Part shown: positions 3,897 through 53,849 of the stretch, piece by piece
Numbering within the stretch: position 1 is the first letter of the stretch
Layout: each line of letters begins with the position of its first letter
Source: Candidatus Heimdallarchaeum endolithica
GTDB lineage: Archaea > Asgardarchaeota > Heimdallarchaeia > Heimdallarchaeales > Heimdallarchaeaceae
Length of the DNA: 64,000 nt
Direction of reading: 5' to 3'
Assembly: GCA_021513715.1 (NCBI GenBank)
Contig: CP084167.1
Location: 658,117 to 722,116, forward strand
Translations under genes and position numbers: made by a program
Notes under the pieces: generated by a model
What the model saw: only the letters and a program-made list of their open reading frames with translations
Databases searched by the model: none
Told to the model about the DNA's origin: nothing

Positions 3897-4438
3897 TTTT
3901 TCACCTCAAAATAATTATCTTCTCTGGGATTACTTTCATTATAATATTCTTGTTGTACATATTTTCGCCAGTCGAAGTCCTTTCTAAACGGAGGAGGGCC
4001 ATCCCAGTCTTCCAACATTAGTGGAGTAAGATTAATGTTTCCTTTAAAAATCACGCCATAAAACTCATGGCATTCTCTTTCACATAATTCTGCATTTTTA
4101 CTCCATAGAGAAGTAACAGAAGATATTGTAGGATTTTCTCTATTTATCCTTGCTTTTATCGTTAAAAGCATTTTTTCTTTATAGGACCATAAATGGTAAG
4201 CAATTTCAAAATTATTCTTTTCAATCCAATCTGTAACACTTATTGTAGAAAGATGTTCAAAACCCATATCATAAGCAATCGAACAAGCATCTACTATTTC
4301 TTTAGGTTCAATAGATACCCAAAGTCTTTTTTTTCTTTGGATATTAACCTTCTTGTTTAATTTCTTACTTAAAGCCGTTACAATTTTTTCTTCTTTATAA
4401 TTATTCTTCTCTTTCTCTACTACACTCATTTTACTCAC
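3893..4438 (-). CDS. NuoC-like 30-kDa subunit
   Basis: ERECHEFYGVIFKGN signature; 4-bp overlap with NuoD-like and NuoB-like genes. Confidence 0.75.
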   Translation of the reverse strand: MSKMSVVEKEKNNYKEEKIVTALSKKLNKKVNIQRKKRLWVSIEPKEIVDACSIAYDMGFEHLSTISVTDWIEKNNFEIAYHLWSYKEKMLLTIKARINRENPTISSVTSLWSKNAELCERECHEFYGVIFKGNINLTPLMLEDWDGPPPFRKDFDWRKYVQQEYYNESNPREDNYFEVKK

Positions 4439-4875
4439 TCATCCGGCATTCCATGAACATGTTGAACTATTTTGAAAACAGCATCAAAAACAGCTTCAGG
4501 TCTGGGAGGACAACCAGGAATATACATGGTTACAGGAAGATAATCTTCAAGCTTCTTAACAGTGTTATATGAATCCCAATACATCCCACCTGTTATTGGA
4601 CATGAACCCAATGCTAAGACAAACTTTGGATCAGGCATTTGCTCATAAATCTTTTGTGCTCTCTTCATTGATTTTGGTGTCTGAAAACCAGCAATAAACA
4701 ACACATCAGCCTTTCTTGGTGAATTAACTGTTATCATTCCAAAACGTTCCATATCCCACCTTGAACCTACAACTGGGACAAGTTCAGTAAATCCACAAGA
4801 GTTAAACCAATTAAAAACCCAAATAGCTTTTACAAAATATTTCATCACAGTTTTCTTCTTAACCATCCTTTCCAC
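4435..4875 (-). CDS. NuoB-like 20-kDa subunit (hydrogenase small-subunit fold)
   Basis: GSCPITGG and GCPPRPE motifs; first motif is SC rather than the usual CC. Confidence 0.8.
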   Translation of the reverse strand: MERMVKKKTVMKYFVKAIWVFNWFNSCGFTELVPVVGSRWDMERFGMITVNSPRKADVLFIAGFQTPKSMKRAQKIYEQMPDPKFVLALGSCPITGGMYWDSYNTVKKLEDYLPVTMYIPGCPPRPEAVFDAVFKIVQHVHGMPDE

Positions 4876-5274
4876 TTTCTTCTCTTTTGTTTAGAAACAC
4901 AATACACAAATTCTTGCTATAATTATTTAAAAAAAAATCTACTTACATATATCTTTTAGGGTAAGGATTTAATCGTTTTGCTATACTTACAAGCCCAAAA
5001 ATGATAAAATAGGTCAATGACTTTTCGGATAACCGAACATTAATCAGTATAAACACCTGTCTAATCGTGTGAATAATTACGCACATGTTCAAAATGGTGA
5101 ATAACTGCGAATTAATTAACAATATATGTGTTTAAGAAAAAGCACATCTGCATTTAAGAATAGAAATTAATCAAACTATTAAATCTAAGAATTTGAGGAA
5201 ATAGATAAAAAAGTAAAAAAAAAGGAAAATAAAGAGACATCTACATTTATAACTTATAATACTCAAATAAATAA

Positions 5275-5400
5275 AAAAATTGTTATAAATGTGAAGGAAA
5301 ATTTGGTTAAGGTGTTCAGGAAAATAAACATTTGTAACGTGGTTCCCGTATGGGTAAGTTAATAACGTACAATCTGTTCTCCAATAAGCAAATAAATTTT
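5275..5400 (-). pseudogene. C-terminal fragment of an alpha/beta-hydrolase paralog
   Basis: Minus-strand translation ENLFAYWRTDCTLLTYPYGNHVTNVYFPEHLNQIFL aligns with the C-terminus of the esterase at 12161-13915 (ETYLNYGRKDCALLTFPYGSHAADIYFPGHFNQIFL); no upstream body or start. Confidence 0.5.
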
Positions 5401-5459
5401 CTTATCAAATCTTTTAAACTGTTAAATAAAAGAAAGAAGAAAAAAAAAGAGTGTAAAAA

Positions 5460-32949: not shown

Positions 32950-33235
32950 CATACAAAAAGAAAAAATTCATTTCATTTTTTTTAACTCTCTTCCAAATAA
33001 AAATACAGTTAAGATTGTAGCCCCCAAAGCAAGTAAAAACAAATAAATTAAAGTTATTTCGAATGGAGAATTATCCAGAAATTAGCCAAAAGACCAAGGA
33101 AAGACAGCTGCTAATGTGTTGGGTATTGCAAACAAGAAACCAAGTGCTGTTGACCTATTTCCTGATGCACTTCTTCTCTTACATATCTTGTACTTGCTAC
33201 ACTACTAAAGTGTAAAAAGGCTATGAAAGCAAAAT
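32950..33235 (-). pseudogene. C-terminal fragment of an MFS-transporter paralog
   Basis: Minus-strand RSTALGFLFAIPNTLAAVFPWSFG* matches the MFS protein at 35968-37221 (KSRSTALGFLFAIPNTLAAIFPWSFGY); in-frame TAA and an upstream frameshift. Confidence 0.5.
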
Positions 33236-33237
33236 AA

Positions 33238-33660
33238 AATATTATTATTCCACATGTTCGAGAAGGTAAAGGAAAAGGAAAAAGTACTCGTAAGTTTCGC
33301 AGGAAACTTCATCAGTGGAACTTTTCTCTTGTCCTTGCTCTTCTCCGTCGGACACTAATATTAAGAGGTTTTGACCCTCATCGAATATTAACAATAGAAG
33401 AAAGAGGGACATCTTCTCACTGTGCTCGTTACGGGAAGAAAGTTATCCGTCCAGTAAGAGGTTTAGTTCATTGTTCTTCTTGCAATTACACTTTCCACTC
33501 TGACCTCACAGGGGCAATAAATATCGCTCGTAAGTTCCTTGGGGCTCTTTTCCGTCCTCGAGGAACAACTATCACTGATTACCTCACTGGTCAAAGGTTC
33601 AGTTCTACCCATTTCACTGTTTGCCGAGGGCTCAGCCATTGGTTGCAGTCCCAGTAGATG
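33238..33660 (+). pseudogene. 5'-truncated TnpB-like nuclease gene (zinc finger plus RuvC-III)
   Basis: No start codon; translation ...IRPVRGLVHCSSCNYTFHSDLTGAINIARKFLGALFRPRGTTITDYLTGQRF... aligns with the C-terminal ~120 aa of the intact gene at 51095-52609. Confidence 0.65.
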
Positions 33661-33720
33661 AAAAAGGACTTAACTAATTCTATCCTCTTATATTTGAGGT
33701 TTAGTTCTTTCTTTTTTGTC

Positions 33721-33800
33721 TCTCGTGGAGTGAAGAAAGATAGAAAGAAAAACTTTCTTTTCTTCTTTATGATTCCCACGATTCGTGTATGATGTCTGTC
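33721..33800 (+). ncRNA. Degenerate copy of the TnpB-associated structured 3' element
   Basis: CTCGTGGAGTGAAGA...hairpin...CTTTATGATTCCCACGATTC matches 52649-52710; the inner stem differs in sequence but stays complementary. Confidence 0.35.
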
Positions 33801-34017
33801 TCAACTCTTCATAGCATTGTATGACTTGGTTGAGTTCAAGAGATTAAACTTTTACTTGTTTTTTCTCTTGCAAGACAGAGTGCGAAAAACTTTACGTAAA
33901 AAAGTAAATCATGACAAAATACTGCATCTTCTGGTGTTTTTGATCCACATTTTGTACAATATTTCATAAACATTCACCCATATTACTACCATAGTAGTAA
34001 TACTATCTTATATAAAT

Positions 34018-34572
34018 CTATTCAAATCTTTTAGAAGTGAAAGTGAACACATGTTGAATAAAGGATTTGGGGGTGAACCCTCTCCTAAAGTAAAGAATTG
34101 AAAGAAATACTAAACTTAAGAAACCTCCAATTTCATTATAATAGACATAAGGTTGTAAAAGAAACTGAAAGTATGTTTGTGTTTTTGGTTGAAAAGTATA
34201 GTTTACAAAGGGGAAAAACCAAGGAATAAATCCTGCTGTATCTAAAATGATATGCATTATCCAACCCAGAATCAATGCAGAATAAACAGTGGGTTTTTTC
34301 CTGAAAACAACTATGAATAAAATGAACATCAGTATAGCAAATGGAATTGAATGACCAATGTATCTTCCATAACCTGTTATAGGCTCTGAAATGAGTTTAT
34401 CAATAATATCTGGTCCAAGAGCTCCAATTATTAGGGGAATAAAAGCAAAATGAACTATCCCCCAACTATCTGTAGGTTCTAAATTTTTCTTTTTTAGAAG
34501 TAACCAATAATAAAGATGAGCTATAATTTCTGCTGTTAATAATGTGTATCCAATGTGGGCAATTAAGAACAT
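34018..34572 (-). CDS. Membrane-bound metal-dependent hydrolase-like protein (DUF457/YdjM-like)
   Basis: GALGPDIIDK and conserved His residues across TM helices. Confidence 0.45.
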   Translation of the reverse strand: MFLIAHIGYTLLTAEIIAHLYYWLLLKKKNLEPTDSWGIVHFAFIPLIIGALGPDIIDKLISEPITGYGRYIGHSIPFAILMFILFIVVFRKKPTVYSALILGWIMHIILDTAGFIPWFFPFVNYTFQPKTQTYFQFLLQPYVYYNEIGGFLSLVFLSILYFRRGFTPKSFIQHVFTFTSKRFE

Positions 34573-34604: not shown

Positions 34605-35171
34605 CTATTTTTTTGCTTTATGATGTTTATAAATATTTTTAGTTAATGCATCAAGTAATTGAGTTAACCCTTTACCTGAAATTGCTGAGACTTCAAAGAA
34701 TTCATTGTTAATGTTCTCTCTAGCTGATGTACGGTTTAATCTAAGACAAAAAGCTTGTGCGTCTATAGGATTTAATGTTCTATTTCTTACATTAGGGTTA
34801 TTTCGAAGATCAATTTTATTTCCTACTAGAACTATTGGAATCTTCCCTTTTCTATTGTAATTGATCAATTGCTCTAACCAGAATGTTACTCTTCTAAATG
34901 TCTCTGCTTTTGTAATATCAAAAACTATAAACGCTCCATCAGCTCCTAAATACCATTTAGTTCTTTGAGGAGAGGATAATAGTTCTCTTGCAGGTAAATC
35001 ATAAAGGTCAAAAGCTACTTCTTCTCCTTGTATTGTGCGAAAAACTTTTACAATCTCCGCTTTTAGAGAAGGAACCTTCTCTTTATTTTTTTCATTTTGA
35101 ACTATTTTCTTAAATAAAGTAGTTTTACCTACGCTGTTATCACCTATAAAAAGAATCTTAAATGTGAGCAT
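34605..35171 (-). CDS. Divergent Ras-superfamily small GTPase
   Basis: G1 GDNSVGKTT, G4 GNKIDL, G5 SAISG; G3 is YDLPARE, lacking the Gly and Gln of DxxGQ. Confidence 0.7.
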   Translation of the reverse strand: MLTFKILFIGDNSVGKTTLFKKIVQNEKNKEKVPSLKAEIVKVFRTIQGEEVAFDLYDLPARELLSSPQRTKWYLGADGAFIVFDITKAETFRRVTFWLEQLINYNRKGKIPIVLVGNKIDLRNNPNVRNRTLNPIDAQAFCLRLNRTSARENINNEFFEVSAISGKGLTQLLDALTKNIYKHHKAKK

Positions 35172-35257: not shown

Positions 35258-35827
35258 TTACTTTTGATTTGATTTATCTCTGATACTTCTTCCAAGAATT
35301 TCAAAGGCTCTATCGATATTTAATCCAGTCTTTGCGCTTGTTTCTAAACAATAATTAATTACACCATACCTCTGTGTACGAAGATTTAGTTCAGTAACAT
35401 ACTTTTGAACTTGTTTGAACTTAACACTCTTTCTATCTCTTAAATCACTTTTATTTGCAAGAACGACAACAGGTACCACTCCTGAACCGTTGAATTTGTA
35501 AAGTTCATTTAACCACATTGGTAGATTTTGAAAAGAAGAAGGACGAGTTATATCAAAGACAAGTAAGGCACCTTGTGCTCCTTTATAAAAACGTGCTCTA
35601 ACTTGCTCAAACATCTGTTGTCCTGCAAGATCCCAAATTTGAAATTTCCACTTCTCATTAGGAATGATTTCTTTGTCTATTGTTGAAAAATCTGCCCCAA
35701 GTGTCATAAGATGACTGGTATTAAATCCGTATCCCATATATTGCATTCTAATAGAAGTTTTTCCTACTGCACCATCACCAATAAGAACGATTTTGAAAAT
35801 AAACAGTTTTTCTGTCATGAAGTTCAA
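35258..35827 (-). CDS. Ras/Rab-like small GTPase
   Basis: G1 GDGAVGKTS, switch I TLGADF, G3 WDLAGQQ, G4 NKSD, G5 ETSAK. Confidence 0.8.
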   Translation of the reverse strand: MNFMTEKLFIFKIVLIGDGAVGKTSIRMQYMGYGFNTSHLMTLGADFSTIDKEIIPNEKWKFQIWDLAGQQMFEQVRARFYKGAQGALLVFDITRPSSFQNLPMWLNELYKFNGSGVVPVVVLANKSDLRDRKSVKFKQVQKYVTELNLRTQRYGVINYCLETSAKTGLNIDRAFEILGRSIRDKSNQK

Positions 35828-35967: not shown

Positions 35968-37221
35968 ATGTCGAGGATACATAGTAAAAATCCTATTGCT
36001 TCATTAAGTATTTTGATTTTTGGTCATTTTCTCAACCATTTCTATGCTTATGTGTTTGGTGCAGCAATGTTTGTGATAAGAAATGATATAGTTATGAACA
36101 ATAAACAAATTGGATTATTAGCAACTATTCAAATGGTAGTTTTTGCACTTTGCACTTTTATTGTAGGAGTGTTGGGAGATAAATGGTTAGCAAGTAAAAA
36201 ACTGTTTGTACCCGTAGGTATTTTCTTTATGGCACTACATCTGATAGTTGCATCAATAGCTCAAAGATATATCGTTCTTGCAATTGCAGCAGCGATTGTA
36301 GGTTTTGGTGCTTCTTTTTATCATCCTGTAGCCTATGCAGCAATAGCAGATCTCTATGAAGATAAAAAAGGATTGACTATGGCTCTAAATGCTGCTTTAG
36401 GAATGATTGGAACAGCTCTTACACCAGGAATAATTGCTTCATTTAGCGAGTGGATTGGATGGAGAAAATTCTTTCTATACTTTGGTCTGGGCGCAATAGT
36501 TTTAACTTTTCTAATGTTTATAGGATTTAATAGACTAATAGACTATAGCTTTGAAAAAGAAGAATTAGAACAAATAGAAAAAAGAAGAAATTCAATGACA
36601 ATGAAAGAAAGAATAATCTATTGGCTAAAATTTGAATTTCTAGCTATTCTAACTTTAGCTGTAATAACATGCTTGGCCTATTCTTCGCTTAGATCTGGCT
36701 TATACAAAATAGTGACACAGTTTTTAAGTATTATATTTGTAGATTACTATGATTATAACATATTAAATGCTGGTTGGTTATCATCAGTAATGCTGATAAT
36801 AGGTGGATTAACTGCCATTTTTGGAGGAATATTGAGCGATAAGAAAAATACTCCGTTAACTATGTTTATTTCTTTATTTGGTTCTACAATATCGATTTTG
36901 CTTATTTTTCTATTAGGCAAAAATACAGGAACTTGGGGAATAATAATTCTTTATTTTTCATTTATAGCTTTCTTACACTTCAGTAGTGCTGCAAGTACAA
37001 AATTTGTAACAGAGGAAGTACATCAAAAAAGTAGATCTACAGCTCTCGGTTTCTTGTTTGCGATTCCTAATACACTTGCAGCTATATTTCCTTGGTCATT
37101 TGGATACTTTATGGATAACTCACCGTTTGATATAACACTAATCTATCTGTTCTTCATTGCCTTAGTTGCAACAATGTTAACAATTATATTATTTGCGCGA
37201 GAGCTAAAAAAGAAAAAATAA
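35968..37221 (+). CDS. MFS transporter
   Basis: 12 predicted TM helices in two 6-helix halves. Confidence 0.7.
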   Translation: MSRIHSKNPIASLSILIFGHFLNHFYAYVFGAAMFVIRNDIVMNNKQIGLLATIQMVVFALCTFIVGVLGDKWLASKKLFVPVGIFFMALHLIVASIAQRYIVLAIAAAIVGFGASFYHPVAYAAIADLYEDKKGLTMALNAALGMIGTALTPGIIASFSEWIGWRKFFLYFGLGAIVLTFLMFIGFNRLIDYSFEKEELEQIEKRRNSMTMKERIIYWLKFEFLAILTLAVITCLAYSSLRSGLYKIVTQFLSIIFVDYYDYNILNAGWLSSVMLIIGGLTAIFGGILSDKKNTPLTMFISLFGSTISILLIFLLGKNTGTWGIIILYFSFIAFLHFSSAASTKFVTEEVHQKSRSTALGFLFAIPNTLAAIFPWSFGYFMDNSPFDITLIYLFFIALVATMLTIILFARELKKKK

Positions 37222-37355: not shown

Positions 37356-40300
37356 CTATAATTTTCCTTCATTTGAGCGCTCAAAAGATGAGAATTCATT
37401 AAGAAGGCGGTCAATAGCTTCTGTGATTTCTTCTTTACTACCTGATGCAAAAGTGAAAATAACCATTTCTCCATCTATCACAAGGAGATCTTCAGGAAGG
37501 GTAACTAACCATCTATACAATGCCCCACGATTAGTGAATTCTAATGCATCCACTAAATCTTGAATAGACACTTTTTTAGCTCTTTTTGCTAGTCCTCCTA
37601 AAGTATTTCTTCTTTTAATAGACATTTGCCATTCAGCAAAAGAATCAAATCCTTCATTTAACGCTTGTTGATATGTAGGATAATCTGGAAAACCATTTTT
37701 ACTTGCTTTGCTTGCAGAAGTAAAATCAGGAGCTTTCATTTTCTTAACAAAAATTAACCCATTTTTATTTTCAGCGCCTAGTTTTTGAGCTTCTTCATAT
37801 TCTTCATAATTAGAAAAACCACCATCTTTTATCTTTTTAGCAATATCATAACTAGGAGCCCCTAACTTCTTCGTTAGTTCAAATCTTTCTTTATTTTCAG
37901 CGCCTAGTTTTTGAGCTTCTTCATATTCTTCATAATTAGAAAAACCACCATCTTTTATCTTTTTAGCAATATCATAACTAGGAGCATTAGTTTGTAAAAT
38001 TTCTAAATTCATTTTTCTTTTATTTAAACGGTAGCGAATGAAAAATACCAAGCCAACTATAAATAATAAAAATAATGATCCGATAGGAATAATGTAAAAT
38101 TTTAAAGGGTTAGAACTTGATTTTAAGGGATTTGTATTAAATATTAACTCTATTTTATCGGAAAATCCATCGTTGTCTGTGTCTGTGTCTGTAGGGTCAG
38201 TATAATAAGTATTTACTTCTTCTTCATCAGTTAACCCATCGTTGTCTGTGTCTGTGTCTGTAGGGTCAGTATAATAAGTATATTCTTCTATGTTAGTTAG
38301 CCCATCATTATCATCATCTTCGTTTGCGTTACTTGTTAATGGGTCTAAATTGTAAAGTACTTCCCACCCATCTGGCATTCCATCATTGTCTGTGTCTGTG
38401 TCTGTAGGGTCAGTATAATAAGTATATTCTTCTATGTTAGTTAGCCCATCATTATCATCATCTTCGTTTGCGTTACTTGTTAATGGGTCTAAATTATAAA
38501 GTACTTCCCATCCATCTGGCATTCCATCATTGTCTGTGTCTGTGTCTGTAGGGTCAGTATAATAAGTATATTCTTCTATGTTAGTTAGCCCATCATTATC
38601 ATCATCTTCGTTTGCGTTACTTGTTAATGGGTCTAAATTATAAAGTACTTCCCATCCATCTGGCATTCCATCATTGTCTGTGTCTGTGTCTGTAGGGTCA
38701 GTATAATAAGTATATTCTTCTATGTTAGTTAGCCCATCATTATCATCATCTTCGTTTGCGTTACTTGTTAATGGGTCTAAATTGTAAAGTACTTCCCATC
38801 CATCTGGCATTCCATCATTGTCTGTGTCTGTGTCTGTAGGGTCAGTATAATAAGTATATTCTTCTATGTTAGTTAGCCCATCATTATCATCATCTTCGTT
38901 TGCGTTACTTGTTAATGGGTCTAAATTGTAAAGTACTTCCCATCCATCTGACATTCCATCTTCATCAGTATCAGCTTTTTTGGGATTTGTACCTAAGTAA
39001 TCTTCCAAAAAGGAGGATAAACTATCATTGTCAGGGTCTACATCTGCTAAATTATTTGTTCTGGAAAAGTTTCCTGTTCCACTTAAACCCTGCCAAAAAA
39101 CATTAATACCTGAAGGTTCAAATTCTAAAGCATAAATACTATAGTCAAAACTGCCTATTAATAAATCTAGTTTTCCATCCCCATTTATATCTGCGATAGC
39201 AGGAGAAGAGTCGATATCTCCACCTGTTGTGTATGACCATATTACTGTCCCATTTTGCCCATTAAGAACATAAATCCTGTCATCTTTACTTCCTATTATT
39301 ACATCTAGTTTTCTATCCCCATTTATATCTGCGATAGCAGGAGAAGAGTCGATATCTCCACCTGTTGTGTATGACCATATTACTGTCCCATTTTGCCCAT
39401 TAAGAACATAAATCCTGTCATCTCTACTTCCTATTATTACATCTAGTTTTCTATCTCCATTTATATCTGCGATAGCAGGTGAAGAGTAAATAACTCCACC
39501 TGTTGTGTATGACCATATTACTGTCCCATTTTCCCCATTAAGAGCATAGACTAAGCTATCATAACTTCCTATTATTACATCTAGTTTTCCATCCCCATTT
39601 ATATCTGCGATAGCAGGAGAAGCGCAGATATCATATCCTGTTATATATGACCATATTACTGTCCCATTTTCCCCATTAAGAACATAAATCCTGTCATCTC
39701 TACTTCCTATTATTACATCTAGTTTTCCATCCCCATTTATATCTGCGATAGCAGGAGAAGAGTCGATATCTCCACCTGTTGTGTATGACCATATTACTGT
39801 CCCATTTTGCCCATTAAGAACATAAATCCTGTCATCTTTACTTCCTATTATTACATCTAGTTTTCCATCCCCATTTATATCTGCGATAGCAGGAGAAGAG
39901 TCGATATCATATCCTGTTGTGTATGACCATATTACTGTCCCATTTTCCCCATTAAGAACATAAATCCTGTCATCTCTACTTCCTATTATTACATCTAGTT
40001 TTCCATCCCCATTTATATCTGCGATAGCAGGAGAAGAGTGAATAGCAGCACCTGTTGTGTATGACCATTCTAATAAACCAAATTTTCCTATAACATATAT
40101 TGTATTATCAACGCTACCTACAATTACTTCTGTAACTCCATCATTGTCTATATCCGCTGCAGAACATGAAGAAACAATATAATTGTTAGTTTTGTAGTAC
40201 CAAAGTCGATTAGAAGTCAATGAATTTACCGAACTAGAGAGAGATATCTGCTGTTCTGATAATGGTAAGGAATAACTAAAACTTGGTAAATAAAATGAAT

Positions 40301-40481
40301 CTGTGGACTGTTTAACTGAGGTCAAATTATCTTGTGAATTTGTTGTTGTAATATCTTGATAATTTGATAACACTAATAATACAATAAGCGTTGTAGATAA
40401 AATTATTCTCTTTTTTATAATAAAATTGAATAGCTCATCAAAAATATGACGCCATATTTCATTTTTTTTTGAATTAATCAT
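37356..40481 (-). CDS. Large surface-anchored repeat protein: beta-propeller (FG-GAP/PQQ-like) blades plus thrombospondin-type-3-like calcium-binding repeats
   Basis: N-terminal signal/anchor; 8 copies of YTTGGDIDSSPAIADINGDGKLDVIIGS..DDRIYVLNGENGTVIWS; 5 copies of DTDTDNDGMPDGWEVLYNLDPLTSNANEDDDNDGLTNIEEYTYYTDPT; TM helix; cytoplasmic tail with a duplicated 32-aa unit. Confidence 0.75.
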   Translation of the reverse strand: MINSKKNEIWRHIFDELFNFIIKKRIILSTTLIVLLVLSNYQDITTTNSQDNLTSVKQSTDSFYLPSFSYSLPLSEQQISLSSSVNSLTSNRLWYYKTNNYIVSSCSAADIDNDGVTEVIVGSVDNTIYVIGKFGLLEWSYTTGAAIHSSPAIADINGDGKLDVIIGSRDDRIYVLNGENGTVIWSYTTGYDIDSSPAIADINGDGKLDVIIGSKDDRIYVLNGQNGTVIWSYTTGGDIDSSPAIADINGDGKLDVIIGSRDDRIYVLNGENGTVIWSYITGYDICASPAIADINGDGKLDVIIGSYDSLVYALNGENGTVIWSYTTGGVIYSSPAIADINGDRKLDVIIGSRDDRIYVLNGQNGTVIWSYTTGGDIDSSPAIADINGDRKLDVIIGSKDDRIYVLNGQNGTVIWSYTTGGDIDSSPAIADINGDGKLDLLIGSFDYSIYALEFEPSGINVFWQGLSGTGNFSRTNNLADVDPDNDSLSSFLEDYLGTNPKKADTDEDGMSDGWEVLYNLDPLTSNANEDDDNDGLTNIEEYTYYTDPTDTDTDNDGMPDGWEVLYNLDPLTSNANEDDDNDGLTNIEEYTYYTDPTDTDTDNDGMPDGWEVLYNLDPLTSNANEDDDNDGLTNIEEYTYYTDPTDTDTDNDGMPDGWEVLYNLDPLTSNANEDDDNDGLTNIEEYTYYTDPTDTDTDNDGMPDGWEVLYNLDPLTSNANEDDDNDGLTNIEEYTYYTDPTDTDTDNDGLTDEEEVNTYYTDPTDTDTDNDGFSDKIELIFNTNPLKSSSNPLKFYIIPIGSLFLLFIVGLVFFIRYRLNKRKMNLEILQTNAPSYDIAKKIKDGGFSNYEEYEEAQKLGAENKERFELTKKLGAPSYDIAKKIKDGGFSNYEEYEEAQKLGAENKNGLIFVKKMKAPDFTSASKASKNGFPDYPTYQQALNEGFDSFAEWQMSIKRRNTLGGLAKRAKKVSIQDLVDALEFTNRGALYRWLVTLPEDLLVIDGEMVIFTFASGSKEEITEAIDRLLNEFSSFERSNEGKL
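38150..38960 (-). repeat. Intragenic tandem repeat, 144-bp unit, about 5.5 near-identical copies
   Basis: Unit recurs at 38371, 38515, 38659, 38803, 38947 (period exactly 144 bp); encodes the 48-aa Asp-rich repeat. Confidence 0.85.
39100..40080 (-). repeat. Intragenic tandem repeat, 138-bp unit, 7-8 near-identical copies
   Basis: ATCTGCGATAGCAGG recurs at 39189, 39327, 39465, 39603, 39741, 39879, 40017 (period exactly 138 bp); encodes the 46-aa propeller blade. Confidence 0.85.
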
Positions 40482-40700: not shown

Positions 40701-40729
40701 AGGTCAACTAAAATTGTAGTAAAAAAGTA

Positions 40730-41270
40730 AATCATGTCTAAAAAGTCTATTTCTTGACTTACACTGCCTGAAGGAGCAAAAGGTAATTGTAGCAGATTAG
40801 AGGACTGTAGAAAGTATTAAGGACACAAGAAGGTAAACGATCAAGGATAGGGGAAGAGAGATTTTGAGGAAACCGAAAACATGTTCAACACTACTACGAT
40901 ATTCAGGGTGATGATTATAGTTATTGAGACCAGAATAAAGACGATGAGCATGGTCTTATCCCTATTATTTATCCTAAAACTAACGCTCGTTATTCTGGTT
41001 ATCCACCATTTGTATCTATAGTCCATGAGTTGAAATTTTACGTAATTTCTTCAGGACTCTCCCCAACCAATCAACAAACTTAGCGAAAGTTGTGAAGACT
41101 GGCTTAAGAGAACATGAAAGACACAGTCTTAATTAAGTTCTCTAAGGGGTTCATCTCCTTATCCCGGGCACTCATAACTCCCAAAGGGAAGACCGGGTGT
41201 CGTAGGAGTGAAACCTACGTCTTTAAGCATATAGCTCAAGACACTAGATAAATTAGAATTAAATATATAA
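40730..41270 (-). pseudogene. 5'-truncated, indel-bearing copy of the IS4/IS5-like DDE transposase gene
   Basis: Minus-strand AHRLYSGLNNYNHHPEYRSSVEHVFGFLKISLP... aligns with the C-terminal half of the transposase at 48491-49435; degenerate right inverted repeat at about 40729-40747. Confidence 0.6.
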
Positions 41271-41286
41271 AGATAGCTGAAAAGTT

Positions 41287-41892
41287 GTGACACTCCCTAA
41301 TATCGTGTATGTATTCTTTATTTTTGCAAATGTGTTTCAGGTTGTTATTGGTCTGATAACTCCACAAACTAAAAATTTAGTTTATTACGTAAAAAAGTAT
41401 CTCATGGACATAGTAGGTCCTACAGCTGAAATTAATGAATTAAGTGTTATTACAAAAACAGGTGATATTAGTGTTAATTCACACACTACTGAAAATGTTA
41501 CAATTAACAACATTATGCTTATTTCAACTACAGGTATTATTCATTTTAGTTTAAGTGATGAAGGAATAAATTATATAAGCAATGCTCTTTCAACCACTAC
41601 TACAGGAAAGATAGAGTTCGATTTTGGAAATAATTGCACTTACAACGGAACAGAAATTAACCTTTCAACAACAACAGGAAAAATAGTTGTTTATTGTACA
41701 AATATGAATTACTTAGTCAATGTATCGTGGTTAATTTCTACAACTACTGGTTCTGTTTATGCAAATATTACTCAAGATTTTATTATTGAAAATCAATTAC
41801 AAGTTTCGTTTTTCATTACAGTAAATACTGGTTCAATAGAAGTATTAACTACTTTTCATGAAGAGCTTTTTTGTACATTTTTGTCAAATTAA
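41287..41892 (+). CDS. Hypothetical protein with STTTGKI repeats (DUF4097/adhesin-like)
   Basis: Three to four repeats of STTTG(K/S)I in a beta-rich sequence; GTG start, so the true start is uncertain. Confidence 0.35.
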   Translation: MTLPNIVYVFFIFANVFQVVIGLITPQTKNLVYYVKKYLMDIVGPTAEINELSVITKTGDISVNSHTTENVTINNIMLISTTGIIHFSLSDEGINYISNALSTTTTGKIEFDFGNNCTYNGTEINLSTTTGKIVVYCTNMNYLVNVSWLISTTTGSVYANITQDFIIENQLQVSFFITVNTGSIEVLTTFHEELFCTFLSN

Positions 41893-48460: not shown

Positions 48461-49464
48461 AAGCATGTCCAAAAATTAATTTTTATTAATGTGGGGGTTT
48501 ATGTCGGAAGTATGAATTTCTTTCAGATCATAGACCCCCACAAAGCAAGAGAATTCATAATCATTAATGAACCTTTCCTTAAGAAACTGGTGAAAGAGGA
48601 ACCGAGAGAAAGCAAGAGAGGGAGAAAGAGAATAGCAGAAAGATGGGTGATACTGGCTTTAGCAATCATTGCTAGAATAGAAGGGATAGCTTGGAGGAAG
48701 TTAGAGGAAAAGTTGTCTTTATGCGATTTTTTGATAGAAGAGGGGTGGATGAAGAAGATTCCTTCTAAATCTACTTTTCATGCAGTGTGGAGAGCGACAG
48801 AAAGTAAAATCTTAGAGCAGTGGATAATAGATTTAGGTAGGGAAATAGTGAGGAAAAAAGGCTTGAAAGCTATGGCAGTGGATAGTTCAGGGTTTAAAAT
48901 CCGTCAAGCTTCTGTTTGGCGTTTTCTCAAATGGTCAAGAGGGACACTAAAGAAAACCTCTAAACTTTTCTGGAAGATACACCTTATAGTTGGTTTACCC
49001 TCTCGAGCTATAGTCTCTCTCGCTCATTCTGCTAGTAACACTCACGATAGTAAAGTCTTCGGTTTACTCTGGCAGAAACTTCCTTCTGCACTCTTGAGAC
49101 CTTTCTTGCGATTTTATGGAGACTGTGCCTACTGGACAGAAAATATCGTTGGACTTCTTAGCCAACATTCCTTTTTCCCTGTTATTCCCCCAAAAAGTAA
49201 TGCTCGTTATCCCTCTCCTCCTCCCCTCGGACCAATAGTTCAAGCTCATCGTCTCTACCCTGGTCTGTATCGTCGTAATCATCATCCCGAGTATCGTAGT
49301 AGTATTGAACACGTCTTTGGTCTCCTTAAACTCTCTCTTCCCCCAATCCTTGATCGTTTACCCTCCACCATCCTCTCTACCTTGTACAGTTCTCTTCTCT
49401 GTTACAACTACCTTTTACTCCTTCGGACCGTTTAGTTGGTGAAAAAGAATTTTTGGACATGCTT
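48461..49464 (+). mobile_element. IS4/IS5-family-like insertion sequence (1004 bp) with perfect 17-bp terminal inverted repeats
   Basis: Left IR AAGCATGTCCAAAAATT at 48461-48477; right IR is its exact reverse complement at 49448-49464; flanked by direct repeat TAGTAT at 48455-48460 and 49465-49470. Confidence 0.8.
48491..49435 (+). CDS. DDE transposase (IS4/IS5-like)
   Basis: AVDSSGF, YGDCAY and IEHVFG...K motifs; the ATG at 48512 may be the true start. Confidence 0.75.
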   Translation: MGVYVGSMNFFQIIDPHKAREFIIINEPFLKKLVKEEPRESKRGRKRIAERWVILALAIIARIEGIAWRKLEEKLSLCDFLIEEGWMKKIPSKSTFHAVWRATESKILEQWIIDLGREIVRKKGLKAMAVDSSGFKIRQASVWRFLKWSRGTLKKTSKLFWKIHLIVGLPSRAIVSLAHSASNTHDSKVFGLLWQKLPSALLRPFLRFYGDCAYWTENIVGLLSQHSFFPVIPPKSNARYPSPPPLGPIVQAHRLYPGLYRRNHHPEYRSSIEHVFGLLKLSLPPILDRLPSTILSTLYSSLLCYNYLLLLRTV

Positions 49465-50838: not shown

Positions 50839-51094
50839 ATTGAAGAACTTGAAAAGAAAGTAGAAATACCAAGAGAGTGGGTTATAAAAACAGCTTATAA
50901 AATAGAAACTCTGGAAGGAGGTTATTATCTATGGAAAGAGTTTCTAGGAGCATTAAACAAGGATTCTCTACTGATGATAGAAAACGACAGTTTACCCCAT
51001 GAAAAAATTTTTTGTATAAATTCTTTAGGTTTTTAAATAAATTGCTTAATTAATAAATAGAGAAAAGAAAGTGAAGAAGAAAAAGGATTAGAAA

Positions 51095-52609
51095 ATGGAG
51101 AAAATAGTGAGAACATTAAGAGTAAGAGTAAAAACAGAAAAATTAACGAAGTTCAAAAAAGATAGAATGAGAAAGATAACAGGAAGAGATACTAGAATAA
51201 TAGAAGAATATGTAAAAATAATAAGAAAAGAAGAAGAAAAAGTAATAAGAAAAATAAGCAAACAAGGAGAGATAAGACTAAAAGTGCATAAAGGCAAGTT
51301 AGATGAACTAACACTAACAACAACAAAGAAAACAAATAAGAAAAAAAGGACAGTTGTACCCTATGATCTCAAAAAAAAGTTTCCTAATTGTTCTCACGAT
51401 GAATTTCAAGAGTGTAGAGATGTAGCAGTACAACTTTATGAACAAGGATATAACAAAAAAAAGAACAAAAAAAGAAAAAAAGGATATATTTTACCACCAG
51501 TAAAACGAGCAAGAAAACAACTAATCAATAAAAATAGATTTATCATAAAACATTTGCCTAAAGGGAAAAACACTCTTTCTCGTTGGTGGGTAGGGATAAG
51601 AGACTCATTAGACACACAAAAAAGAAAAAAACGAACACATCGAAGACTATGGATACCACTAGAAATGAGTGAATATCACCAAAAAGAAATAAGAAAAGGA
51701 CAAGTAAAAAGTCTAGAATTAAAATATAACTCACAAAAAAACAGTTGGTGGGTAAATTTTCAGATAACAATTATTCCTCAAGCAGATCTCTACAAGAAAA
51801 AAAAAGTTGACTCTTCTCTTCTTCCTCCAGCTGTGCTGGGAATAGATCTGGGAGAAAAAATACCTGGAGCAGGAGTGTTATTAACATCAACAGGTAAAAT
51901 ATCTCCCAATCATATTTTCTTCTGGAAAATGAAAGAATGGAAAAAAAGGAAGTATATCTATCAACAGAAAATAAGAAGATTGCAACGAAAACTTGCAAAA
52001 AAGAAGAATACATGTAAAGACAAAAGAAGCAATAAAGGATATCAAACATTAAAAAAATTAAGAAAAAGATATCAGACGCTCTCTCATGCTTATTTATATG
52101 CTTTTATCAATGAGTTGTGGAAAGATATTGTTGAACTTACACAGGATTATAATTTAGTCGTTGTTGTTGGTTACCCCAAGGGAGTACACTCGAAATTAAG
52201 AAAAAAAGTAATGAATCAAGACTACAGACCACAGAACTCTTCTACTCGTTTTACTCGTAAAAAGGTTCACCCGTGGAATTACTACCAAATAGTTACTCTT
52301 CTTCGACGAATGTGTCTTCTAAATGGGTTAGAACCCGAACGTATCCTCACCTTACAGGAATATCTTACCTCTTCTCTTTGCTCAAAATGTGGACGAAAGA
52401 CTATTCGACCTGTTAGAGGTCTTGTTTATTGTTCTCATTGTCATTATACTCTTCACTCTGACCTTACCGGTGCAATCAACATCGGGAAATTGTTTCTTCG
52501 TTTTCTTTTTCGCCCCCGAGCATCTACACTAGTTGATTATCTTACTGGACAACACTTTAGTCTCACCTTTTATACTTCCTTCAGGGGTCTCAACCAGTGG
52601 TTGAAATAG
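51095..52609 (+). CDS. tnpB: TnpB-like RuvC nuclease (IS200/IS605 OrfB, Cas12/Fanzor-related)
   Basis: RuvC-I LGIDLG, RuvC-II region around FINELW, zinc finger CSKCG...CSHCH, RuvC-III HSDLTGAINIG; lysine/arginine-rich N-terminal half. Confidence 0.8.
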   Translation: MEKIVRTLRVRVKTEKLTKFKKDRMRKITGRDTRIIEEYVKIIRKEEEKVIRKISKQGEIRLKVHKGKLDELTLTTTKKTNKKKRTVVPYDLKKKFPNCSHDEFQECRDVAVQLYEQGYNKKKNKKRKKGYILPPVKRARKQLINKNRFIIKHLPKGKNTLSRWWVGIRDSLDTQKRKKRTHRRLWIPLEMSEYHQKEIRKGQVKSLELKYNSQKNSWWVNFQITIIPQADLYKKKKVDSSLLPPAVLGIDLGEKIPGAGVLLTSTGKISPNHIFFWKMKEWKKRKYIYQQKIRRLQRKLAKKKNTCKDKRSNKGYQTLKKLRKRYQTLSHAYLYAFINELWKDIVELTQDYNLVVVVGYPKGVHSKLRKKVMNQDYRPQNSSTRFTRKKVHPWNYYQIVTLLRRMCLLNGLEPERILTLQEYLTSSLCSKCGRKTIRPVRGLVYCSHCHYTLHSDLTGAINIGKLFLRFLFRPRASTLVDYLTGQHFSLTFYTSFRGLNQWLK

Positions 52610-52775
52610 ACCTATGTACTATTATACCATAATGGTAGAATACTTAGTACTCGTGGAGTGAAGAGTTCTACTCTTCTTTATGCGTCCCACGATTCCTAGA
52701 TGATGTCAGTATGCTCAAACATCTGTTTCAGCGTTTGTATTCTTCCACTGACGTAGTAGGAGAAAATTGTACAAA
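52610..52775 (+). ncRNA. Candidate TnpB-associated guide-RNA scaffold (omega-RNA/reRNA-like) and element right end
   Basis: Immediately after the tnpB stop: near-palindrome TACCATAATGGTA (52625-52638), nested stems CGTGG...GAAGAG-loop-CTCTTC...CCACG (52649-52700), ending near palindromic TTGTACAA (52767-52774); core conserved with compensatory changes at 33721-33800. Confidence 0.4.
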
Positions 52776-53849
52776 AAATTAACTCATGAAGAAGAATACT
52801 TGATAAACGCTATAGGATTAGGAGGAGAAATAATACCTGACATCAAGAGCAATTTCAAAAAACTAATTGAAATATTCGCAGAAGCTCCTGACGATCTTGT
52901 AAAAATAGGAGATACAGCCTTTTTCATGGGTTATATGGATAATATTTATTCTAGCCAGTTTTGGACAATAAAAAACTTCGTTAAAGGAAACAAAAAAAAT
53001 TGGAAAAAAGATTTTATAAAAATAGCAATAAAAGCATATTCAAAAGCTCTAGATAATATTATTCCATCAGTTAACCCAGTAAAGTACGGTTTGCTAATAA
53101 ACGATTTAGGAGTATTTTACTTATTTCTGTCAGAATTAGAGCAAACTAAAAAACACACTATAGAAGCAATCAAAAATTTACTTGATGCAAAAAAAGCATT
53201 ACCTTTAGAGTTCTTTAAAACAAAACATAGTGATATTTGTTATAATTTAGGACTGGCTCATTTATTTTTGTCTAAAATAGAAGAAAAAGAAGAAAATATT
53301 AAACAAGCTATTCTAAACTTTAACGTTGCTCTGCAAGGAAGAACGTTAAGAATGTATCCATTGAAACATGCTATAACACAAGTCAATCTAGGAATTGTCT
53401 ACCAAAAATTAGCTGAAATCGAAGAAACCTCTTTAAATTGTACATTAAGTATAGAATCTTATAACAATGCTTTGAGATCCAACACTCTAGACGTCATGCC
53501 AACAGAAGCAGCGATGATATATAACAACATAGGTCTATCTTATTGCACTTTATCTGATGTACAGGAAACAGAATACAATATTTCACAAGCTTTAATTGTT
53601 TTAAATGATGCTTTGACCATCAGAAATGAAGCACAGTTTCCTGTTGAATATGCAATTACAACAAGTATTTTAGGAAAAGCTTATACAATTCTAGCAACAG
53701 TAAAAGAAAAAAAAGAATATTATGAAAAGGCAATATCAGCATTTAATAAAACAATTAAGATATTCATCAAGAAATATGAAGACTTCTACCAAGCAATAAT
53801 ACAAGAAAAAGAAAAAGTAGAAGAGAAACTAAAAGAAATAGCGCAATAA
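52767..53849 (+). CDS. TPR-like helical repeat protein
   Basis: Recurrent (N/Y)N(L/I)G..Y..L...E pattern every ~40 aa; start ambiguous (TTG at 52767, TTG at 52800 or a downstream ATG). Confidence 0.5.
   Translation: MYKKLTHEEEYLINAIGLGGEIIPDIKSNFKKLIEIFAEAPDDLVKIGDTAFFMGYMDNIYSSQFWTIKNFVKGNKKNWKKDFIKIAIKAYSKALDNIIPSVNPVKYGLLINDLGVFYLFLSELEQTKKHTIEAIKNLLDAKKALPLEFFKTKHSDICYNLGLAHLFLSKIEEKEENIKQAILNFNVALQGRTLRMYPLKHAITQVNLGIVYQKLAEIEETSLNCTLSIESYNNALRSNTLDVMPTEAAMIYNNIGLSYCTLSDVQETEYNISQALIVLNDALTIRNEAQFPVEYAITTSILGKAYTILATVKEKKEYYEKAISAFNKTIKIFIKKYEDFYQAIIQEKEKVEEKLKEIAQ

Follow-up and report, generated by a model that had tools for sequence, protein, structure and literature searches.

The segment at positions 33250–33912 of a 64,000-nt window of the Candidatus Heimdallarchaeum endolithica genome (GCA_021513715.1, contig CP084167.1, forward-strand positions 658,117–722,116; coordinates below count from the first letter of this window) is, with a probability that we put at about 0.8, the deletion-truncated right-hand third of a TnpB transposon of the type found in Candidatus Heimdallarchaeum aukensis, with a right end that encodes an omegaRNA scaffold. 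According to the history that we propose, the ancestor would have been a ~1.96-kb TnpB-only transposon, of a type that is multicopy in Ca. H. aukensis, and one deletion would have taken its left end and the first ~350 codons of tnpB, together with the 5′ part of a divergent MFS paralogue. The survivors are the last ~135 codons of the gene, now dead, and a complete right end of ~255 nt, which by its position and structure is predicted to encode the scaffold of an omegaRNA (reRNA) composed of hairpin 1, helix P2 around hairpin P3, helix P4 with a three-helix domain, and a terminal hairpin. The scaffold would end at the transposon boundary, so that the flanking DNA from 33913 would serve as guide. 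The TnpB of an intact element would bind the omegaRNA and cut guide-matching DNA, while in the remnant the RNA gene would have been orphaned.

The plus-strand frame at 33238–33657 is free of stop codons and translates to the C-terminus of a TnpB (NIIIPHVREGKGKGKS...HSDLTGAINIA...LSHWLQSQ, stop codon TAG at 33655–33657). The frame matches Pfam PF07282 (Cas12f1-like TNB) with an E value of 2.5e-8 and NCBIfam guided_TnpB with an E value of 3.2e-8, and no ORF of at least 40 amino acids with a start codon was found in it. The preliminary description placed here the last ~120 codons of a TnpB paralogue, starting at 33238 and lacking a start codon; the gene is indeed 5′-truncated and dead, with no usable start, but the homology runs from ~33250 and covers ~135 codons (33250–33657, plus strand). 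The codons at 33238–33249 ('NIII') are the reverse complement of 'GIII' codons of a minus-strand MFS pseudogene. What the remnant retains begins at the RuvC-II Glu (IEERGTSS), includes the zinc finger, the RuvC-III motif (HSDLTGAINI) and the C-terminal helix, and runs to the C-terminus. One zinc-finger Cys has been replaced by Tyr, so that the CxxC now reads CARYGK. The remnant tnpB is dead and cannot make TnpB.

Comparison with other TnpBs revises the idea that the remnant is a decayed second copy of the intact element in the window. The remnant protein is 54–55% identical to the intact TnpB of the window and 78–88% identical to TnpBs of Ca. H. endolithica, Ca. H. aukensis and related metagenomic sequences, and at the nucleotide level it is 84–90% identical to H. 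aukensis elements. Judged by these identities, the remnant belongs to a different subfamily from the intact copy and is not a decayed paralogue of that copy. Furthermore, its coding part carries only three private substitutions in 369 nt, one of which is the zinc-finger Cys to Tyr change, so it has hardly decayed by point mutation; its truncation is ascribed to one deletion.

Species-representative genomes were scanned for TnpB, which yielded 76 loci; eleven of these are ~1.96-kb copies in the closed Ca. H. aukensis genome. In blastn comparisons, window positions 33252–33913 align with the final ~660 bp of the aukensis copies, at 84–90% identity for eight of the eleven and at 75–82% for the remaining three (L005, L009 and L039). 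The matches end at 33912–33919, and nothing upstream of the remnant matches the left part of the aukensis elements. Host genes in the window are themselves 88–95% identical in nucleotide sequence to the H. aukensis flanks, indicating that the host is a close relative of Ca. H. aukensis; recent horizontal transfer from H. aukensis is therefore not needed and was rejected. No copy of the element was found in viral contigs.

The left junction of the remnant, at ~33250–33263, joins two divergently oriented genes, both of which are without their 5′ part. Specifically, positions 32971–33263 on the minus strand hold an MFS-transporter pseudogene fragment (residues ~320–417, with one frameshift and one in-frame stop), which covers the final ~98 codons of a gene paralogous to the MFS gene at 35968–37221. 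The fragment is 77% identical to 36929–37219 over 291 nt in blastn, with a tblastn E value of 6e-31. Because tnpB and the MFS paralogue are 5′-truncated at the same junction, a single genomic deletion would explain the truncation of both. Two other routes to a truncated element were considered and rejected. An internal deletion with the left end kept is inconsistent with the absence of a left terminus upstream of the remnant, where neither blastn nor a terminus-motif search found one. Recurrent 5′-truncated transposition, an idea raised by three loci with a right end only (L003, L077 and L079), is not the case here, as the junction abuts the truncated MFS pseudogene; in addition, L003 turned out to be a 721-bp tandem duplication including flank. 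Within this locus (Ca. H. aukensis CP084166.1 23346–31512, locus coordinates ~4290–5431), the last ~700 bp of a full TnpB element, together with 25 nt of flank, are repeated perfectly in tandem after the element, giving two identical omegaRNA-plus-guide units in a row.

An alignment of 3′ flanks defines the other boundary. The eleven aukensis copies and the remnant are alike up to ...GTAAATCAT / ...AAAAAGTAAATCAT, at window position 33912, and unrelated beyond it. Since the eleven aukensis copies diverge from one another immediately after the equivalent of 33912, this position is the right end of the transposon, which the remnant keeps complete. The terminal hairpin P8 (TTTAC/GTAAA) and the right end ...TTACGTAAAAAAGTAAATCAT, a terminal inverted-repeat sequence, lie at 33891–33912 on the plus strand, as located by the divergence of copies and by a match to the terminus motif. 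In the right end of the remnant, 3 of 130 conserved columns are altered, compared with 1–4 for the right ends that stand beside full-length genes and 11 for the decaying orphan L079.

In ISDra2 and related TnpBs, sense transcription yields an omegaRNA whose scaffold stops at the right end of the element, and the next ~16–20 nt are the guide. The present copies show the corresponding boundary: the eleven aukensis copies, the remnant, and the intact copy when set against its second copy in a metagenome contig (L078, which diverges after ...CTCATG) all diverge directly after ...TCAT. By analogy, DNA from 33913 onward would act as guide, with 33913–33932 (plus strand), which adjoins the right-end boundary, as the candidate segment that would form the 3′ end of the omegaRNA. 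Near-matches to this candidate guide in the window, among which a second target was sought, are within chance. The candidate guide of the intact copy, a low-complexity purine run, has eight window matches with three mismatches, compared with 2.6 expected from shuffles, and no close match to it was found in the window.

The 255 nt past the stop codon of the remnant are predicted to fold into a multi-helix RNA. Hairpin 1 (AACTAA..CCTC..GAGG..TTAGTT; 33672–33706, plus strand) is, as read from alignments, the homologue of the hairpin at 52616–52650 in the intact copy; it has been wholly resequenced between the two window copies, yet is present in both, and the hairpins of relatives at this place also differ in sequence. 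It is followed, in aukensis-type copies, by a T-tract (33705–33717, TTCTTTCTTTTTT) that is absent from the intact window copy; this tract looks like an archaeal oligo-T terminator, might stop transcription that reads through from tnpB before it reaches P2, and is able to pair with the purine arm of P3. Helix P2 (TCGTGGAGT / ATTCCCACGA; 33723–33781, plus strand) surrounds hairpin P3 and a conserved TTTATGATTCC motif, and was recovered by RNAalifold, pair counts, the covariance model and the minimum-free-energy fold. Helix P4 pairs TTCGTG at 33782–33787 with TGCGAA at 33881–33886 on the same strand, as supported by RNAalifold, pair counts and the minimum-free-energy fold, and closes a domain of three inner helices, namely P5 (GTCT/AGAC), P6 (CTCAACT/GGTTGAG, with a CATTGTATG loop) and P7 (CAAGAGA/TCTCTTG). 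In RNA letters, the RNAalifold consensus of 17 sequences comprises P2 (UCGUGGAGU / AUUCCCACGA) enclosing P3, P4 (UUCGUG / UGCGAA), the P6 loop CAUUGUAUG, and P8 just before ...UCAU. When folded as single sequences, both window copies repeat this layout except for a shifted register of P4.

Several observations argue that this structure has been maintained. In both window copies, predicted folding is stronger for the sense than for the antisense strand (z of −4.3 versus −3.3 and of −3.0 versus −2.0). On 14 aukensis-type sequences, a 48-pair model is 97.5% paired, compared with 42–52% when partners are slid, the model having been derived from the same sequences on which the pairing was scored. 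Among these 14 sequences, six pairs show double-sided changes, compared with 1.7 in shuffles (0/500), most of the double changes coming from one lineage (L081/L082) and hence representing few independent events. In P4, four of the six pairs differ between the two window copies and all are still paired (G-C to C-G, U-G to U-A, G-U to A-U and U-A to U-G), and conserved G-U pairs are located in P2 and P4. The covariance model R1 scores 222 bits on the remnant and 64 bits on the intact copy (E 3.6e-15), where P2, P3, P4 and P8 are aligned and the P6-P7 part is replaced by a shorter insert. R1 was not sufficient as a single model for all subfamilies: it finds the A-types and a miniature element in the window (described below), but of subfamily C it recovers L031 alone (21.8 bits) and of subfamily B nothing. 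Subfamilies B and C were therefore analysed separately from the A-types.

The retention of flanking 3′ motifs, pointed out in the preliminary description, is borne out. CGTGGAGTGAAGA occurs exactly at 33724 and 52652, and TCTTCTTTATGnnTCCCACGATTC only at 33761 and 52672; two window matches of TCTTCTTTATGnnTCCCACGATTC were obtained in 0 of 100 shuffles, and both motifs stand only beside the remnant and the intact tnpB. The conserved motifs lie 66–130 nt beyond both stop codons, so the similarity is not coding similarity, which disposes of the alternative that it reflects just the 3′ coding sequence of tnpB. A small conserved ORF after the stop codon (33658–33792) was also rejected, because its ATG is missing in relatives.

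Hairpin P3, the stem to which attention had first been drawn, occupies 33732–33765 in the remnant (GAAGAAAGATAGAAAG/CTTTCTTTTCTTC) and is composed of a GAAG base, a purine arm, an AAAAA loop, a pyrimidine arm and CTTC. Its sequence differs, as originally observed, from GAAGAG/CTCTTC at 52660–52676 in the intact copy. The GAAG/CTTC base is invariant in 17 sequences, while the distal purine and pyrimidine runs bring the predicted helix to 7–31 bp. The claim that the stem differences are compensatory, and that the structure is thereby selected, fares less well: the P3 stems of the two window copies differ by a single compensatory pair (G-C to A-U) and by an extension, but their complementarity is no better than that of separately shuffled arms. 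Specifically, the remnant P3 has a folding energy of −9.2 kcal/mol, compared with −8.1 ± 2.2 kcal/mol for shuffled arms (p = 0.33), and p ranges from 0.02 to 1.0 over the copies. Complementarity of P3 thus comes largely from the composition of its arms. With a purine arm facing a pyrimidine arm, and with shuffled arms folding about equally well, the statement that the arms stay complementary is weak evidence of selection. Real covariation is carried by the helices other than P3.

It is accordingly possible, if doubtful, that P3 is free of structural selection altogether and is a low-complexity purine/pyrimidine palindrome produced by slippage or hairpin-templated repair, its complementarity being a by-product. 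Besides the shuffled-arm controls, such a view would account for the several pairing registers of P3 and for the alternative partner of its purine arm, the T-tract just upstream, and the same elements also carry purine tracts of variable length near their left end. It is harder to reconcile with the invariant base and with the co-varying arm lengths (Spearman 0.88 for 13 distinct hairpins, which are not independent). It also sits poorly with subfamilies B and C, which carry unrelated, non-low-complexity hairpins at the P3 position, immediately 5′ of a shared motif, UAAUGAGUSCC / UUUAUGAUUCC; these P3-equivalents (GAGUACC/GGUGCUC in subfamily B, GAAUCUGUC/GACUGAUUC in subfamily C) show compensatory changes in both subfamilies. 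For the distal part of P3, a lack of selection is compatible with the omegaRNA reading. We therefore read P3 as a peripheral stem, probably free of protein, which would have to exist and whose tip would be free to vary; its distal tract most likely grows and shrinks between copies by slippage, under a loose requirement for a hairpin. The proposal that the hairpin keeps its position while its sequence changes agrees with these comparisons, as the conserved structured element keeps P3 at the same position across copies. Selection on structure, likewise, is apparent for the element as a whole, as judged from P4, from the resequenced hairpin 1, from the six double-change pairs and from the compensatory changes in the P3-equivalents of subfamilies B and C, although the flagged stem is weak evidence for it when taken alone. 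Thus, the structural intuition of the preliminary description holds for the whole element, and the stem offered as its proof is the weakest evidence for it.

The near-palindrome and the TTGTACAA motif that had been thought to recur in the remnant in a different order exist as letters (TACTACCATAGTAGTA at 33984–33999, TTGTACAA at 33952–33959), but they had been matched to the wrong counterparts. Both lie 40–90 nt outside the element, in flanking DNA beyond its end at 33912 and just beyond the stop codon (34018) of a convergent gene at 34018–34572, and were rejected as parts of the element. The palindrome of the intact copy at 52616–52650 is the first hairpin after the stop codon and corresponds to 33672–33706 in the remnant, while its TTGTACAA (52767–52774) lies inside the terminal inverted repeat and corresponds to TTACGTAA (33893–33900). 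TTGTACAA has six occurrences in the window, compared with about two expected. Farther into the flank, 34605–35171 and 35258–35827 on the minus strand are adjacent genes for small Ras/Rab-like GTPases, the second with GDGAVGKT and WDLAGQ motifs. Such genes are typical of Asgard genomes.

The intact element of the window spans 50998–52788 on the plus strand, with the left terminus at 50998–51019, tnpB at 51095–52609 (504 aa), and the right terminus at 52767–52788 (element end at 52787). Its RNA region (plus strand) contains hairpin 1 at 52616–52650, P2/P3 at 52651–52692 and P4 at 52693–52698 / 52757–52762, and is without P5–P7. The protein has the split RuvC D-E-D residues and zinc finger that define TnpB, of which the remnant keeps the C-terminal segment only: GIDLG, EYLTSS and HSDLTGA are aligned and conserved, with the D-E-D residues kept. 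It matches PF07282 (3.8e-10) and guided_TnpB (1.2e-14, below the curated cut-off), and its predicted fold (pLDDT 77) matches Cas12f (4.8e-13) and ISDra2 TnpB (4.2e-11). In every subfamily, the ends are 22–28-bp imperfect inverted repeats of the form 5′-ATG...CAT-3′ (window 50998–51019 and 52767–52788; loci L001–L061). The elements are ~1.8–2.0 kb long, carry tnpB only and hold no transposase gene. When the flanks were examined for a target-adjacent motif or a target duplication, the sole recurrent feature was a C preceding the left end in most copies.

A third member of the family in the window is a miniature element of ~380 bp without tnpB, at 41025–41406 on the minus strand, which is detected over its full length by R1 (31.5 bits, E 1.5e-6) and carries the terminus motif with one mismatch. 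It opens with a left terminus (CATGAGATACTTTTTTACGTAA) and closes with a right terminus (...TTACGTAAAATTTCAACTCATG), between which are the final ~25 codons of a subfamily-B-like TnpB and an omegaRNA-like scaffold, and it aligns with subfamily B. By this composition, it is a candidate mobilisable stand-alone omegaRNA. About 290 nt from it, at 40715–40736 on the minus strand, is a solitary terminus-like sequence, CATGATTTACTTTTTTACTACA (three mismatches to the terminus motif; 0 chance matches expected). The DNA between the two, at 40730–40952, is 75% identical to a repeat found at 49115–49464 and in H. aukensis (L003, 7814–8167). At 52786–52788 and 41403–41405, the ATG of the terminal CATG seems to double as the start codon of the gene next to it, so these elements would lie flush against gene starts; the genes concerned are a TPR-like ORF (MKKNT...) after the intact copy and 'MDIVGPTAE...' in ORF 41287–41892.

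An intact right end next to a dead tnpB could mean that the remnant has been retained as a working stand-alone omegaRNA gene, which would supply an extra guide in trans to full-length aukensis-type TnpB elsewhere in the genome. We consider this unlikely. The right end is as intact as those beside full-length genes, the window also holds the tnpB-less miniature element with its omegaRNA-like scaffold, and trans-acting stand-alone omegaRNAs have been reported (Altae-Tran 2021, as cited in PMC10691335). Yet the very few private substitutions mean that recency alone accounts for the intactness, other orphans (L079) show visible decay, and the sole intact TnpB in the window is 54–55% identical in sequence, with an RNA that lacks P5–P7. 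Trans use of the remnant RNA would require full-length aukensis-type copies at other genomic loci. A broader proposal, in which the remnant and the miniature element would both be retained guide-RNA genes that add targets for full-length TnpBs elsewhere in the genome, with P3 freely expandable, is similarly improbable; if true, it would give an Asgard archaeon a natural system of several dispersed guides.

Least probable is a reading in which the conserved 3′ region acts as DNA, that is, as a transposase-bound transposon end whose hairpins are single-strand DNA or protein-binding features: inverted repeats at both ends of every subfamily and the overlap of P8 with the repeat are in line with it, and covariation alone cannot separate RNA from single-stranded DNA, but the left end repeats only the terminal ~22–28 nt while the ~200 nt with P2–P7 occur solely at the right end, on the 3′ side of tnpB and in the same orientation, the conserved G-U pairs and better sense-strand folding are strand-specific, and the layout matches the omegaRNA loci of other TnpBs.

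On the omegaRNA reading, the locus is a real but ordinary relic of a transposon family not yet described in detail. Its value is mainly one of housekeeping, in that it supplies the true boundaries of the remnant, the cause of its truncation, and the helices with real covariation. Beyond this, the analysis provides a first structural sketch and a covariance model for the guide-RNA region in a TnpB family that is divergent, restricted to Heimdallarchaeia and marked by inverted-repeat ends and effector-less derivatives; these could aid the annotation of Asgard genomes and the choice of compact nuclease/RNA pairs. In such a choice, P3 would be the stem that can likely be trimmed, its tip being presumably dispensable. 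A caution that follows from P3 is that purine/pyrimidine stems look compensatory for free.

The systems most similar to these elements are the TnpB-omegaRNA (OMEGA) systems of the IS200/IS605 superfamily, in particular those of the tnpB-only IS1341 type (ISDra2 TnpB; the sotRNAs of Halobacterium). Shared features are a RuvC/zinc-finger TnpB (PF07282, guided_TnpB), a predicted fold matching Cas12f and ISDra2 TnpB, a multicopy distribution, and a conserved structured region in sense that reaches from the tnpB stop codon to the right end of the transposon, with conservation stopping at the boundary. As position, strand, structure and sharp boundary match those of TnpB omegaRNA loci, of which archaeal examples have been described (PMC10691335, PMC12558985), we read the right end as an omegaRNA scaffold, and the region past the stop codon fits this assignment by analogy. 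Unlike in the IS1341-type systems, the Heimdall protein is divergent (54.5 bits, compared with a curated NCBIfam cut-off of 100), the A-types have their whole scaffold (~180–255 nt) beyond the stop codon, and the ends are 22–28-bp inverted repeats rather than asymmetric, with no TnpA gene inside. No Rfam family reached its gathering score anywhere in the window (best sub-threshold E 0.28, to unrelated families), and the sotRNA families RF02656 and RF02657 were not among the matches up to E = 10. No description of a Heimdallarchaeal TnpB RNA of this family came up in a literature search; Wu et al. 2022 describe multicopy transposase families in these Heimdallarchaeum genomes, in a text in which the terms IS605, OrfB and IS200 are absent.

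Classical IS200/IS605 elements have asymmetric ends with subterminal hairpins and no inverted repeats, and encode a Y1 TnpA (a serine recombinase in IS607). The present elements depart from this arrangement in their imperfect inverted repeats and in their content, tnpB only within ~1.8–2.0 kb. Type V (Cas12f-like) CRISPR-Cas systems differ in that the loci studied here are multicopy and bounded by transposon ends; a tandem-repeat scan found no repeat array near either copy, the only long arrays lying within the coordinates of a 1041-aa ORF (37356–40481). Those arrays are long, near-perfect 138- and 144-nt tandem repeats at 38236–40068, and the translation of the ORF contains repeated DINGDGKLD and DTDNDG motifs.

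Transposons with inverted terminal repeats that contain a TnpB are known from DDE/IS630-associated branches (PMC10691335). The present elements resemble these in the symmetrical inverted-repeat termini around tnpB, and differ from them in that a DDE transposase gene between the repeats is absent and a TA duplication is not evident. Finally, stand-alone omegaRNAs that act in trans and are 'evidently mobilized' have been reported (Altae-Tran et al. 2021, in the account given by PMC10691335). As far as that account goes, the remnant is like them in that it would encode an omegaRNA with no effector gene beside it, in a genome where effector-bearing elements occur as well, and unlike them in that 33250–33912 was apparently born by deletion and has no left end, whereas the miniature element at 41025–41406, which carries both transposon ends around its scaffold, fits better.
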